A DNA stretch of 64,000 nucleotides from Candidatus Methylomirabilota bacterium (GCA_035762565.1 DASTOJ010000206.1:3913-67912), one strand, 5' to 3'. Shown: positions 52,870 to 57,388, numbered from the stretch's first letter. The notes: generated by a model not told the origin, from the letters alone. Numbers and translations: made by a program.

Positions 52870-55083
52870 ATGATCACTCGGCGCACGACGCGGCAGCTCA
52901 CGCTCGGCACCCTCGCGATCGGCGGGGACGCGCCGATCACCGTGCAGTCGATGACCAAGACCGACACCCGGGACGTCCAGGCCACCTTGCTCGAGATCTG
53001 GTCGCTGGAGGCGGCCGGCTGCGACGTCGTCCGCTGCGCGGTGCCGGTCCGGGAGGCCGCCGAGAAGCTGGGCGAGATCAAACGACAGATCCGCATCCCG
53101 CTCGTGGCCGACGTCCACTTCAACTACAAGCTGGCCCTGATCGCCCTCGAGCAGGGCGTGGACGGGCTGCGCCTCAATCCCGGCAACATCGGGGGCAAGC
53201 GGTTCGTGCTGGAGGTCGTGGCCCTGGCCAAGGAGCGCAAGATCCCGATCCGCATCGGGGTGAATGCGGGATCACTGGAGAAAGACCTTCTGGAGAAATA
53301 CGGCGGACCAACGGCTCAAGGCATGGTGGAGTCGGCGCTGCGCCACATCCACATCCTCGAAGAATGCGCGTATCCAGAGATGAAGGTGTCCCTCAAGGCC
53401 TCCGATCCGCTCATGATGATCGAGGCCTACCGGATGCTGGCCGATCGGGTCGACTACCCGTTCCACCTCGGCGTCACCGAGGCCGGCACGCCGGGCGTGG
53501 GCACGATCAAGTCAGCGGTCGGCCTCGGCGCCCTGCTGAGCGAGGGCATCGGTGACACGATCCGCGTCTCGCTGTCGGCCGATCCCACCGAGGAGGTGCG
53601 GGTCGGCATCGACATTCTCAAGTCGCTCGGCCTGCGCAAGGGCGGCCTCACGTTCGTGTCGTGCCCGTCCTGCGGCCGCGCCGACGTGGACCTCGTCAAG
53701 CTCGCCAAGGAAGTGGAGGACGAGTTCCGCGGCCTCAACGAGGAGATCCACATCGCCGTGATGGGATGCGTGCCGGAAGGCCAGCCGGTCGTGACACGCC
53801 AGGGTCCCAAGCGCATCGAGACCGTCGGTGCGGGCGACGAGGTGCTGACCCACGCCGGCGAGTTCCACCGGGTCGAATGGGCGAGCACCCACGCGTTCGC
53901 CGGGGACCTAGTCGAGATCCAGCCGACCGGGTTCGCGCCGGTGCGTCTCACCGAGAACCACCCGGTCTGGGCGTTCCCGCTGCCCGTCTCGCTGAAAGCC
54001 GGGCGCGAACGGAGGCCGCACCTCGCACGCGCGCTCGAAGCCGGCACCGAGCCGCGCTGGATCCCGGCCGGCGAGCTGCGCTCGGGCTGGGTGCTCGCGT
54101 ATCCGGTGCTCCAGGAAAAGGAGGACCGGGCGACAATCCACGCCGTCGGGTTCGGCGAGATCCCCGTCGACGACGACTTCCTCACACTGGCCGGCTACTA
54201 CCTCGCCGAGGGCACGATGTCGGGCAAGGGGGGCCGGCGATACCAGCAGTTCTTCCACTTCCACGAGGATCAGAGGCGGTACGTCGACCGGCTGCGGGGC
54301 GCACTGACCTCGCTCGGGCTCCGATCGACGGTCCGGGGCCGCCGCCATACGGCCGAGGTCATCACGCATTCGCTGGCGTTCGGTGAGCTCCTCGAAGCAC
54401 TCTTCGGACACGGCGCCGGGTGCAAGCGGATGCCCGAGTGGATGGAGCGACTGCCGCACGACAAGCAACGGGCGCTCGTGAAGGCCCTGTGGGAGGGTGA
54501 CGGGTACCTGGGGCGGGTCCGTGGCTACTGGCGCGCCACGTACTCGACGTCCTCTCACGCGCTCGCGCTGCAGGTGCACCGGCTGCTCCTGCGCCTGGGC
54601 GTCGCGGCCTTCCTGCACCACCGCGACCAGCGGGACCGGCGGCGGAACTGGGTGGTGTCGGTGACCTCGCAGCCGGCGCTCGCCCGGCTGGCCGGGATCC
54701 TCGAGCTCGGGGCGCTGCGAGGCTGTCGGACCACCGGCCAGGCGGGCCAGGTCGTGCTCGACGAGCATGCGCTCTACGTCGGCATCAGGGCCGTCCGGCG
54801 CGTGCCGTACACCGGCCACGTCCACAACCTCGAGGTCGCCGGCGTCCACTCGTTCGCCCTGCCGGGCGCGATGCTGCACAACTGCGAGGTGAACGGGCCG
54901 GGCGAGGCACGTGCCGCCGACATCGGGGTGGCGGGCGGGCGGGGGATCGGTCTCATCTTCAAGGGCGGCGAGGTCATCCGGAAGGTGCCGGAGAAGGAGA
55001 TCGTGACGGCGATGCGCGAGGAAGTGGACAAGTTCCTCGCCGAGCGGCGGGCCGCGAAGCAAGCGGCGGAAGCGGACGCCTGA
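52870..55083 (+). CDS. ispG: 4-hydroxy-3-methylbut-2-enyl diphosphate synthase (IspG/GcpE) precursor containing an intein
   Basis: Residues 1-299 (ITVQSMT, RLNPGNIG, RIGVNAGSL, GVTEAGT, SCPSCGR, IAVMG) and 672-737 (CEVNGPGEARAADIGVAGG) together make a normal 365-aa IspG. A 372-aa insert separates them. Confidence 0.9.
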   Translation: MITRRTTRQLTLGTLAIGGDAPITVQSMTKTDTRDVQATLLEIWSLEAAGCDVVRCAVPVREAAEKLGEIKRQIRIPLVADVHFNYKLALIALEQGVDGLRLNPGNIGGKRFVLEVVALAKERKIPIRIGVNAGSLEKDLLEKYGGPTAQGMVESALRHIHILEECAYPEMKVSLKASDPLMMIEAYRMLADRVDYPFHLGVTEAGTPGVGTIKSAVGLGALLSEGIGDTIRVSLSADPTEEVRVGIDILKSLGLRKGGLTFVSCPSCGRADVDLVKLAKEVEDEFRGLNEEIHIAVMGCVPEGQPVVTRQGPKRIETVGAGDEVLTHAGEFHRVEWASTHAFAGDLVEIQPTGFAPVRLTENHPVWAFPLPVSLKAGRERRPHLARALEAGTEPRWIPAGELRSGWVLAYPVLQEKEDRATIHAVGFGEIPVDDDFLTLAGYYLAEGTMSGKGGRRYQQFFHFHEDQRRYVDRLRGALTSLGLRSTVRGRRHTAEVITHSLAFGELLEALFGHGAGCKRMPEWMERLPHDKQRALVKALWEGDGYLGRVRGYWRATYSTSSHALALQVHRLLLRLGVAAFLHHRDQRDRRRNWVVSVTSQPALARLAGILELGALRGCRTTGQAGQVVLDEHALYVGIRAVRRVPYTGHVHNLEVAGVHSFALPGAMLHNCEVNGPGEARAADIGVAGGRGIGLIFKGGEVIRKVPEKEIVTAMREEVDKFLAERRAAKQAAEADA
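53767..54882 (+). mobile_element. Intein with LAGLIDADG homing-endonuclease domain, inserted at the third Fe-S ligand Cys of IspG
   Basis: Begins with Cys (CVPEGQP). Block B TxxH is present (LTENHPVW), along with two LAGLIDADG motifs (LAGYYLAEGT; LVKALWEGDGYL). It ends ...VHNLEVAGVHSFALPGAMLHN and is followed by a +1 Cys (TGC at 54883-54885). 1116 nt, in frame. Confidence 0.85.
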
Positions 55084-55415
55084 TGGGCCAGTACGACACG
55101 CACGTCTTCGTCTGCACCGGCGGCGACGACTGTCCCAAGGGCGGCGACGTCGAGCAGTTCGTGAGGTACCTGCGCGGCGAGGTGGTCCGGGCCGGGCGCC
55201 AGCAGGAGGTCCGGATCAACAAGGCCGGCTGCTTCTCGCAGTGCGGTCACGGACCGATGATCGTCGTCTATCCGGAGAACGTCTGGTACGCCGGCGTGCA
55301 GCAGGCCGACCTCCCGGAGATCGTGCAGTCCCACATCCTCGGCGGCCAGCCGGTCGCACGCCTGCTCTACGCGCCCGGCGTCAAGGGCGCCAACAAGAAG
55401 AAAGACGCCCACTAA
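55083..55415 (+). CDS. Thioredoxin-like [2Fe-2S] ferredoxin domain protein
   Basis: ATGA overlap with the ispG stop. Cys pattern VFVCTGGDDCP...AGCFSQCGHGPMIVVYP is typical of Trx-like (2Fe-2S) ferredoxins. Confidence 0.75.
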   Translation: MGQYDTHVFVCTGGDDCPKGGDVEQFVRYLRGEVVRAGRQQEVRINKAGCFSQCGHGPMIVVYPENVWYAGVQQADLPEIVQSHILGGQPVARLLYAPGVKGANKKKDAH

Positions 55416-55681
55416 TGACTCTCGTGGAATACGGTGACGCCGGGGGCCAGGTGGGGGGCCGCGGGCGCGCCATCATGGCGAGCCGTCGTCGCCGTTCGAG
55501 CGCAGGGCGCGGCGAGCGAGCCGCCAGCGATTCGATTGGCCTGCGGCCGAGCCCCCGGTGGGGGATGGGGGGCCGAGCGAGCCGTGCCCGGAGCGAGTTA
55601 CGGCGACAGGCGAGCCATGCGGGCGCGCCCGCGGCCCCCCACCTGGCCCCCGGCGTCACCGTATTCCACGAGAGTCATTAG
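55412..55681. mobile_element. 270-bp MITE-like element with perfect 60-bp terminal inverted repeats
   Basis: 55412-55471 is the exact reverse complement of 55622-55681, checked base by base. TA dinucleotides sit at 55413-55414 and 55679-55680. The 150-nt interior is rich in GCGAGC/GAGCGAG repeats. It fills the whole fdx-proS intergenic space. Confidence 0.6.
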
Positions 55682-57388
55682 ATGCGGCTCGCGAAGTCGC
55701 TGGTTCCCACCTTCCGCGAGGATCCCGCCGACGCCGAGGCGCTCTCCCACAAGCTCATGCTGCGGGCGGGGCTCGTGCGCCAGCTGGCGGCCGGCATCTA
55801 CGTCTACCTGCCCATCGGCCATCGGGTGATCGACCGGATCTGCGCCATCGTCCGCGAGGAGATGAACGCCATCGGCGGCCAGGAAATCACGATGCCGGTC
55901 ATCCAGCCGGCGGAGATCTGGCAGAGGTCGGGGCGGGCCGAGGGGATCCCCGAGATGTTCAAGCTCCAGGACCGCTGGGGGCGCGACCTGGTGCTCGGCA
56001 TGACCCACGAGGAGGTCATCGCCTGGCTCGCCGCCCGCGAGATCCGCTCCTACCGCGACCTGCCGCAGATCTGGTACCAGATCCAGACCAAGGAGCGTGA
56101 CGAGGCCCGGCCCCGCTCGGGCGTCCTCCGGACGCGCGAGTTCGTGATGAAGGATGCCTACACGCTCGATCCCGACCTGGCCGCGCTCGACCGCTCGTAC
56201 GCGGCCCACGAGGGCGCCTACCGGCGCATCTTCGCGCGCTGCGGCCTTCGCTTTCACGTGGCGCAGTCCGACACCGGCATGATGGGCGGCCTCGGCGCCC
56301 ACGAATTCCTGGCGCCGTGCGCGGCGGGCGAGGACGAGATCGCGCTGTGCGCGGGCTGCGGCTACGCCGCCAACGTGGAGATCGCCCGCGGGGTGCCGGC
56401 CCGGCCGGCCTTTCCGGCCGGGCTCCGCGAGGAGGTGGCGACGCCGAACGCGCGCACCATCGCGGAGGTGAGCGCGCTCCTGGGCCTCGACCCCCGCCTC
56501 ACCCTCAAGTCGCTGCTCTACGTGGGCACGAAGACGGGACCGGTGCTCGCGCTGGTGCGCGGCGACCACGCCCTGCACGAGCGCAAGCTGGCCCGAGCGC
56601 TGGAGGGCGACGAGATCCGTCCCGCTCATCCTGACGAGGTCCGCGCCCACCTGGGCGCCCCCGCGGGATCGGTGGGGCCGGTGGGCGCGCGGGTGCCGGT
56701 GGTGGCCGACGAGCACCTGCGCGAGGGGACGTACGTCGTCGGCGCCAACCGCGAGGGCGTCCACCTGCGCGGCGTCGTGCCCGGCCGTGACTTCACCGCG
56801 CGCTACGCCGACCTCCACACCGTGACGGCGGGCGAGACCTGCGCCAACTGCGGCCAGCCGCTGGCGGTCGAGAAGGTGATCGAGGTCGGCAACATCTTCA
56901 AGCTCGGTACCCGGTTCTCGGTGGCGCTCGACGCGAAGTACCTCGACGAGTCGGGCAAGGAGCAGCCGGTGGTGATGGGCAGCTACGGGATCGGGCCCGC
57001 CCGCATCGCCGCCGCTGCCATCGAGCAGAATGCGGACGCCGACGGCATCGTGTGGCCGGCCGCGATCGCGCCCTTCTCGGTGCACGTCGTGATCGTGAGC
57101 ATGCGCGACACCGGGCAGGTCGCCGCCGCCGAGGAGATCTACGGCGCGTGCCGCGCGGCCGGACTGGACGCGCTCCTCGACGACCGCGACGAGCGGCCCG
57201 GCGTGAAGTTCAAGGACGCCGACCTGCTCGGCATGCCGGTGCGGGTCACCGTCGGCAACGCCCTGGCCAAGCAGGGCCTCGTCGAGGTCAAGCAGCGCCG
57301 GGCCCCGCGCCGCGAGGAGCGGGCCGCGCCCGGCGCGGTCGTCGAGACGATCCGGGCTCTCCTGGCCTCGAAGGACCCGGGCGGCTGA
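55682..57388 (+). CDS. proS: Proline--tRNA ligase (bacterial type with INS editing domain)
   Basis: Class II motifs (FRDE-like TFREDPADAE start, RPRSGVLRTREFVMKDAY, GSYGIGPARI) at a length of 568 aa. Confidence 0.95.
   Translation: MRLAKSLVPTFREDPADAEALSHKLMLRAGLVRQLAAGIYVYLPIGHRVIDRICAIVREEMNAIGGQEITMPVIQPAEIWQRSGRAEGIPEMFKLQDRWGRDLVLGMTHEEVIAWLAAREIRSYRDLPQIWYQIQTKERDEARPRSGVLRTREFVMKDAYTLDPDLAALDRSYAAHEGAYRRIFARCGLRFHVAQSDTGMMGGLGAHEFLAPCAAGEDEIALCAGCGYAANVEIARGVPARPAFPAGLREEVATPNARTIAEVSALLGLDPRLTLKSLLYVGTKTGPVLALVRGDHALHERKLARALEGDEIRPAHPDEVRAHLGAPAGSVGPVGARVPVVADEHLREGTYVVGANREGVHLRGVVPGRDFTARYADLHTVTAGETCANCGQPLAVEKVIEVGNIFKLGTRFSVALDAKYLDESGKEQPVVMGSYGIGPARIAAAAIEQNADADGIVWPAAIAPFSVHVVIVSMRDTGQVAAAEEIYGACRAAGLDALLDDRDERPGVKFKDADLLGMPVRVTVGNALAKQGLVEVKQRRAPRREERAAPGAVVETIRALLASKDPGG

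Follow-up and report, generated by a model that had tools for sequence, protein, structure and literature searches.

A probable miniature inverted-repeat transposable element with a conserved core and variable but paired arms at the fdx-proS junction of a Rokubacteria genome

How did a long, nearly perfect hairpin come to lie directly on the start codon of proS, the essential single-copy gene for prolyl-tRNA synthetase, in an operon whose other genes are tightly coupled? In this study, we have examined the inverted repeat that separates fdx from proS in a 64,000-nt stretch of Candidatus Methylomirabilota DNA (GCA_035762565.1 DASTOJ010000206.1:3913-67912), which we call the window and whose positions are used for all coordinates given without a contig name. 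The host, which the relatives of its ProS place in Candidatus Rokuibacteriota (Rokubacteria), is a metagenome-assembled soil genome of 5.22 Mb, 72% G+C and 91.5% completeness (labelled G000), and was compared with 13 congeneric genomes, giving a genus set of 14. An earlier description drawn from the DNA alone (hereafter the sequence-only reading) had taken the repeat for a MITE (miniature inverted-repeat transposable element) inserted between two genes that once touched. Our investigations make it very likely that the repeat is a non-autonomous, non-coding hairpin MITE of this Rokubacteria genus, inserted in a CTAG with duplication of the central TA. They also support the view that this is an ordinary kind of element with an uncommon architecture, in which the core is constant and the arms change quickly while remaining paired.

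The hairpin itself is readily described (Table 1). Compared base by base, positions 55412-55471 and 55622-55681 are reverse complements at 60 of 60 positions, exactly as had been reported, and a repeat search carries the arms inward to 73 nt at 95% complementarity, in agreement with the 13 or so additional imperfectly paired bases noticed previously. The core was correctly described as rich in GCGAGC: it holds five such motifs, all on the same strand, and prolongs the rod with conserved internal loops. A folding-energy calculation, which the sequence-only reading had left for later, gives -253.8 kcal/mol for the RNA of 55400-55700 (301 nt) as compared with -151.5±5.7 for dinucleotide shuffles (z = -18), a value that none of 100 shuffles equalled. 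The termini ATGACTC...GAGTCAT are bounded by a TA on each side. The size had been put at 270 bp, a figure that counts both TA copies together with the C and the G of the CTAG; the transposed unit is 264 bp and has no coding capacity.

The evidence that this unit was inserted comes from the relatives. Orthologues of fdx were recovered in 12 of the 13 congeneric genomes searched (13 of 14 with G000), adjoining proS in 11, and the element is present at none of these 11 junctions. Seven of them read ...GAC GCn CAC TAG ATG CGn..., identical to the predicted empty site and, letter for letter, to the CAC TAG ATG CGG junction that the sequence-only reading had obtained by removing the element and one TA. 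Three more are off by a single base (TAGGATG, with a base inserted, in two genomes; TAGTG, with a base removed, in one), and the last has another short spacer from which the element is likewise absent. The filled site is CAC-TA[264 bp]TA-G ATG, as against an empty site of CAC-TAG followed by the proS start. Based on these empty junctions, the event was the insertion of 264 bp (55415-55678) with duplication of TA inside C-TA-G, and it explains the odd gap of 266 bp in an otherwise tightly coupled ispG-fdx-proS operon.

The element is one of many. BLAST and profile searches found about 97 related places in G000; 21 of them hold full-length copies, and many coincide with contig ends. Repeats of this kind break short-read assemblies of Rokubacteria. 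The family was found in 11 of the 13 congeneric genomes (G004 and G009 are without it), and other genera of the same order gave faint matches to the core only, in a few genera. Between genomes the insertion sites are polymorphic, the element being present at a site in some and missing from it in others. We collected 58 full copies, 20 from G000 and 38 from six relatives, and terminal inverted repeats were seen in all 58. The multi-copy family, the empty sites and the TA flanks support the interpretation of the repeat as a MITE, and the data exclude both parts of what the sequence-only reading had named as fatal to it, namely a single-copy sequence and the same sequence at this locus in distant relatives. 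A degenerate pattern of the termini run against all public genomes was loose and returned mostly single matches expected by chance, with paired matches only in Methylomirabilota/Rokubacteria records. Full-text searches found no published description of such repeats in Rokubacteria, and this large family, with its constant core and its fast-changing but paired arms, is apparently unpublished.

The choice of target accounts for much of the family's behavior. CTAG is about 14-fold under-represented in G000 (935 sites, 7% of the mononucleotide expectation), and the sites that remain are largely stop codons and the ends of mobile elements. Among other tetranucleotides of this genome, TTAA is also extremely depleted (107 sites, 5% of expectation), and GATC and TCGA are about 3-fold enriched. 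In the 58 full copies, CTA stands on the left in 31 and TAG on the right in 30, making CTA...TAG the commonest frame; an intact TA is found at both ends of 22 copies and at one end of 22 more. These flanks, like the empty sites, fit the TA target-site duplication that had been proposed for the focal copy. In 47 of the 58 a coding-like open reading frame (ORF) ends exactly on a terminus, taking as its stop either TA joined to the element's first A or the TGA that stands in frame within the terminal ATGA, so that a terminus of the form TA-ATGA rebuilds a tandem TAA-TGA stop. Because CTAG is rare and survives mostly as C followed by a TAG stop, the family homes to gene ends, and often to stop/start junctions within operons. 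The family illustrates cleanly how, in nature, a transposon can avoid harm: it aims at a rare tetranucleotide surviving mainly as stops and then rebuilds the stop.

For the gene context we used our own ORF heuristic (GC3 ≥ 0.8 and GC1 > GC2) and not a gene finder. In 31-33 of the 46-47 copies with one gene reading in, a gene on the same strand starts at most 120 nt past the far end, and about 20 of those downstream genes start within 3-12 nt; the stop/start position of the focal copy inside an operon is thus the family's usual habitat. A consensus scan found neither a sigma-70-like promoter nor an intrinsic terminator with a U-tract in or near the element. For read-through transcripts, the sequence-only reading had predicted occlusion of the proS start, termination or RNase III cleavage. 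The placement of about two thirds of the copies at intra-operon stop/start junctions, along with the missing U-tract, argues against a strong polar block, and this usual placement suggests, indirectly, that downstream genes are still expressed in spite of the hairpin. Copies are oriented unequally, the gene whose stop codon is used entering one particular end in 32 cases and the other in 14 (p ≈ 0.01), and the focal copy has the minority orientation. With replication direction in view as a cause, we found no link between orientation and GC skew, but the skew is too weak here (mean absolute skew 0.013) to weigh for or against it.

The architecture of the family inverts the usual logic of MITEs, since it is the middle that is conserved, between ends that vary yet remain paired. 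In alignment A1 (39 copies, seven genomes), 83 columns are invariant, most of them within the asymmetric core, which is about 150 nt long, and helix 11 at the apex is invariant in all 39 copies. The arms vary, and even their outermost bases do so in matched pairs (GCGACTC/GAGTCGC, ACGATTC/GAATCGT, ATGCCCC/GGGGCAT, GTCCGTC/GACGGAC). Compensated cells number 168 in the terminal 26 nt, as compared with 54±5 when partners are shuffled. Over the whole rod they number 247 as compared with 46.5±6.1, a count reached by 0 of 500 shuffles, with double changes at 52 of 94 pairs. Paired cells make up 97.3%; shuffles reach 89.4%, and slid registers 35-47%. The arms thus stay complementary after insertion, outermost bases included.

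At 11 or more G000 loci, the same core sits in arms of 30-48 nt that match only their own inverted partner genome-wide. A flank-only search showed that the empty sites of relatives at these loci are without both arms (the C131 locus, for example, is empty in G008, G012 and G013), which places the private arms in the inserted DNA and rules out that they were pre-existing palindromes or inverted duplications of the target. In G004 (L206, contig C60) and G009 (L207, contig C188), the site orthologous to G000 C131:12205-12445 is occupied by another insert, some 130 nt long and with a GC-rich hairpin of its own (CGTCGGAGGGGGCCTCGACGGCCCCCTCCGA...), which probably represents a separate small family of repeats. 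In G000 the core is also seen with one more class of arms, at C41:18303-18527, C49:20367-20594 and C205:5443-5663, in longer elements (about 300 bp) whose outer ends are CTAG-CGCGGACTATTCACGAACGG...CCGTTCGTGAA...CTAG, and from this class it follows that one core rides in several distinct sets of termini.

Two observations bear on when the pairing is made. At the C222 locus, an orthologous copy in G005 and G012 differs by about 5% in the rod and by about 38% in the arm fringe and adjacent spacer, and among the rod differences are two pairs with clean compensation and two changes from wobble to Watson-Crick pairing. These differences indicate that pairing was restored in situ after insertion and that evolution is slower in the element than around it. 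In a subfamily of G008, a fixed non-complementary patch at positions 13-18 has been inherited, which indicates faithful copying of both arms and not renewal of one arm from the other with every move.

Is the pairing maintained in the RNA or in the DNA? Selection on the transcript would be expected to leave more G·U than A·C among the imperfect pairs. We counted 97 G·T against 115 A·C overall, and 61 against 75 in the sense of the entering gene; furthermore, many of the compensated pairs are GC-to-CG flips for which no wobble intermediate is possible. The missing G·U excess and these flips favor a strand-symmetric process at the DNA level, and RNA-level selection on the stem was rejected because the excess is seen neither overall nor on the transcribed strand. 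In quasi-palindromes, correction of one arm on the template of the other is a known mutational route, and such arm-to-arm correction, or else selection for fold-back or cruciform DNA, would be the most economical candidate for the mechanism. A known RNA family was likewise dropped, T-box included, as an Rfam scan of 55300-55800 gave matches at chance level only (the best at 13-21 bits against gathering thresholds of 37-83, E = 0.9-5.8). The family should be a good system in which to study how long palindromes stay symmetric in bacterial chromosomes, and whether such repeats acquire host functions.

What moved the element? IS630 itself inserts at CTAG and duplicates the TA. A TA duplication in CTAG, within the NTAN target of the group, is of the type made by DDE transposases of IS630/Tc1-mariner type, and an enzyme of this type could have mobilized the element in trans. 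The assignment to IS630/Tc1-mariner-type MITEs made in the sequence-only reading accordingly holds for the TA duplication and the CTAG flanks; the IS630-family transposase with matching ends that would complete it did not turn up. Two other mobile elements of G000 are of note. Contig C61:1-~1190 (L031) holds an apparently intact IS630-family element with a 362-aa DDE_3 transposase and CTAG on both sides. Contig C66:~941-2595 (L209) holds an IS1380-type element with a 463-aa open frame matching DDE_Tnp_1_4; its inverted repeats are CCTCGATTCG, its two flanks CTAG and CTAA, and with it the genome has a second mobile element that uses a YTAR-type target. As candidates for a parent insertion sequence in G000, the IS630-type (C61), IS1380-type (C66) and IS4/5 elements were set aside for their unrelated ends, and pairs of element termini more than 300 bp apart proved to be chance occurrences. 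Nor does any transposase family track the element over the 14 genomes: PF13701 occurs in three and PF01609 in seven (IS1380-type and IS4/5-type elements being sporadic), and Y1_Tnp of the RAYT type (PF01797; control genomes were positive) and DUF4096 of the IS427 type occur in none, so that these families and DDE_3 were all rejected.

A MITE carried by a DDE transposase of IS630 type is the reading we favor, and a number of our findings weigh against it. No transposase with matching ends was found in this genome, in five relatives or at 80 public loci. The resident IS630-type element, with ends GTGTTCCGT.../...ACGGAACAC, has its target preference in common with the hairpin family and termini that are unrelated, and the termini of our element (ATGAsTCTCGTG) are absent from the 80 public loci that hold relatives of the resident transposase. 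DDE_3 occurs in only three of the 14 genomes (G000, G004 and G007), of which G004 is without the element, and it is absent from G005, G006, G012, G002 and G010 despite their many copies; long-read assemblies holding dozens of copies contain none. No autonomous-sized elements were seen, pairs of termini in five relatives all being 250-315 bp apart. A DDE transposase binds each end independently, and for this reason compensated variation in the outermost bases is unexpected of termini that such an enzyme recognizes. A plain selfish MITE explains neither a core better conserved than the arms nor the orientation bias. Finally, since TA is a palindrome, the TA...TA frame is inseparable from an extension of the hairpin wherever empty sites are not compared, and a few copies are flanked by complementary bases other than TA (cGA...TCg, cCA...TGc). 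The highest identity between any two copies is about 93%, and copies in one genome are at least 7-8% diverged, so that the family may be currently immobile, its transposase lost, or may alternatively depend on an unrecognized enzyme.

At the focal junction, the last C of fdx and the TAG stop behind it supplied the CTAG into which the element inserted, with duplication of the central TA; its initial ATGA, joined to the duplicated TA, rebuilds a TAA stop with an in-frame TGA behind it, leaving the host gene neither extended nor truncated. Expression of proS would likely continue by read-through transcription, and ribosomes may re-initiate at TAATG, translate 88 codons through the hairpin while melting it, terminate at TAG and re-initiate at proS. 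The tRNA synthetase gene, essential and single-copy, tolerates this hairpin of about -250 kcal/mol directly on its start.

Of the alternatives, a takeover by the host fares best, although we regard it as unlikely. It proposes that the copies, or the core and hairpin, are kept because they are useful at gene ends, as a protein-binding site or as punctuation of mRNA ends and operons; at fdx-proS, the copy would then tune the expression of proS relative to ispG-fdx. The slow divergence of the G005/G012 rod relative to its spacer and arm fringe, the 83 invariant columns, the orientation bias, the placement of all five GCGAGC motifs on one strand and the location of most copies inside operons with the genes intact are all in its favor. 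However, core conservation would follow equally from gene conversion among some 100 copies or from a past requirement of transposition, 11 congeners manage without the focal insertion, the transcribed strand shows no wobble excess that would betray selection on an RNA fold, and the copies have no promoter-like or terminator-like consensus.

Somewhat less probable again is a structure-dependent, single-strand mechanism of REPIN/RAYT-like or attC-like kind instead of a DDE reaction, in which an unrecognized host enzyme would read the core and the fold-back hairpin. The sequence of the arms would then be free as long as they pair, and pairing might be regenerated with each move. This would suit a conserved core between arms that vary with compensation up to their outermost bases, the genome-unique arms at 11 loci or more, and the failure to find a DDE partner in most genomes; moreover, compensatory changes in hairpins are a published hallmark of REPINs (PMC3116915). 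Yet no Y1/RAYT transposase exists in the 14 genomes, and the clean duplication of 2 bp (TA) within CTAG marks a staggered DDE cut and not insertion by an HUH enzyme or a tyrosine recombinase. The inherited G008 patch shows arms copied unchanged, compensation is also seen in situ in orthologous copies, and orientation is not linked to GC skew, though the skew is weak.

We give the same low weight to the view that these hairpins form a class of their own among mobile or semi-domesticated DNA, a selected fold-back unit with a constant 150-nt core whose arms would be free in sequence but kept palindromic by templating at the DNA level, served by an unrecognized host enzyme that is not of the IS630, RAYT, IS5 or IS1380 kind. 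If this were true, CTAG homing, the rebuilt TAA-TGA and a frame running from ATG to TAG on either strand would together permit residence in operons without polarity. Lastly, a regulatory hairpin specific to proS (attenuator or terminator) or an assembly artefact has next to no chance of being right: the position directly upstream of an aminoacyl-tRNA synthetase gene, the extreme stability of the stem and the chimeric inverted repeats that metagenome-assembled genomes can contain would suit it, but it is refuted by the copy number, with diverse flanks in at least seven genomes including long-read assemblies, and by the empty sites in 11 of 11 relatives, and no Rfam family, T-box included, matches.

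Table 1. Coordinates in the window of the hairpin element, its parts and the adjoining reading frames.
Feature	Position	Strand	Basis or remark
fdx, 110-aa thioredoxin-like [2Fe-2S] ferredoxin-like gene	55083..55415	+	ORF; weak Suc_Fer-like Pfam match
Left hairpin arm; outer 60 nt perfectly complementary to right arm	55412..55484	.	Pairing kept across 39 copies
Left TA of the duplicated target, inside the original C-TA-G	55413..55414	.	Relatives' empty sites CAC TAG ATG; flanks of 58 copies
Transposed unit, class-A hairpin MITE (very likely), 264 bp, ATGACTCTCGTG...CACGAGAGTCAT	55415..55678	+	Full-copy alignment, empty sites, profile census
Element-spanning open frame, 88 codons, probably no gene	55415..55681	+	ATG overlaps the fdx TAA (TAATG); TAG 55679-55681 abuts the proS ATG
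Conserved asymmetric core, CGCGCC ATCATGGCGAGCC ... GGCGAGCCATG..GGCGCG	55466..55630	+	Invariant columns, alignment A1
Apex: CCCCC-GGT-GGGGG hairpin, then AT-GGGGGG	55552..55572	+	Most invariant stretch over all arm classes
Right hairpin arm, contains SD-like GAGAG 55670-55674	55609..55681	.	Repeat search
Right TA of the duplicated target; with G55681 forms TAG directly before the proS ATG	55679..55680	.	Empty sites
proS, prolyl-tRNA synthetase with editing domain, intact	55682..57388	+	Pfam tRNA-synt_2b, tRNA_edit, HGTP_anticodon

The Suc_Fer-like match of fdx is weak (E = 3.7e-4, under the curated cut-off); its stop is now a TAA (55413-55415), in which the duplicated TA is completed by the element's first A, and so lies inside the left arm as had been stated. 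proS gives one match in the genome and starts with the ATG at 55682. The Shine-Dalgarno-like (SD-like) GAGAG does lie in the right arm, at a position one base further than that first assigned to it (55669-55673). Upstream, ispG (GcpE, 52870-55083 on the plus strand) is long, at 737 aa, because of an intein-like insert between two GcpE halves, with Hint_2 at residues 300-363 and a LAGLIDADG homing-endonuclease domain at 532-608; its TGA overlaps the fdx ATG (ATGA, 55080-55083).

The sequence-only reading had also held that the element carries no ORF of its own. Taken literally this is not so, because the whole element forms one open frame of 88 codons; in substance it stands, as that frame has no Pfam match and is not conserved by indels. 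Frame 1 is open in 52 of the 58 copies in sense and in 40 in antisense. Only 8 of 30 non-modal copy lengths are multiples of 3, so that indels have no frame bias, and the frame is intact no more often at operon junctions (76%) than elsewhere (64%); both counts speak against a selected translational bridge. The open frame may therefore be an inherited property of GC-rich sequence which may help at proS and is not demonstrably selected. Within 55381-55829, both strands show mirror-image ORFs (MTPGARWGAAGAP... on both, and MTLVEYGDAGG...) generated by the palindrome, just as the sequence-only reading had explained them, and automatic annotation of such genomes is likely to call them hypothetical proteins.

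Among known systems, the closest are the MITEs of IS630/Tc1-mariner type, for example RUP of Streptococcus pneumoniae. Like them, our family has terminal inverted repeats, a 2-bp TA duplication and a preference for CTAG, and it is small, non-coding, dispersed in many copies and polymorphic for presence and absence. Unlike them, it has no IS630 element with matching ends and lives mostly in genomes without DDE_3; its arms are of 60-75 nt, their terminal bases vary with compensation, and the core is conserved instead of the termini. The Correia elements of Neisseria (CREE/NEMIS) and the ERIC/IRU elements of Enterobacteriaceae are likewise TA-flanked hairpin MITEs without a known resident transposase, and they occupy the same intergenic niche. 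They are co-transcribed with their neighbors, and their RNA hairpins affect mRNA processing and stability. Our element, on the other hand, has no sequence relationship to them, is about twice their size with a far higher G+C content and much longer stems, homes strictly to stop codons via CTAG and gave no RNA signal in the wobble test. Reviews cover both groups (PMC3184786, PMC2229807).

The compensated arms have parallels of their own. bcr1 of the Bacillus cereus group is a MITE-like repeat of about 155 bp with a target duplication, in which compensatory changes keep a cruciform-like structure (PMC3184786). It resembles our family in being MITE-like, in its target duplication and in these changes, and differs in its 5-bp duplication, in a structure reported at the level of RNA, in its phylum, in its unrelated sequence and in having no homing to stop codons. 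In REPINs, which are doublets of REP sequences that form hairpins and are mobilized by RAYT, the two sides of the stem commonly show compensatory changes (PMC3116915). Here too the hairpin is the evolving unit, with compensatory changes, a high copy number and vertical persistence in a lineage. This is a likeness in behavior, not membership, as RAYT/Y1 is found in 0 of our 14 genomes and REPINs make no TA duplication. A further distinction is that REPINs conserve their ends around a variable middle, whereas the Rokubacteria family conserves its middle between ends that vary and stay paired.

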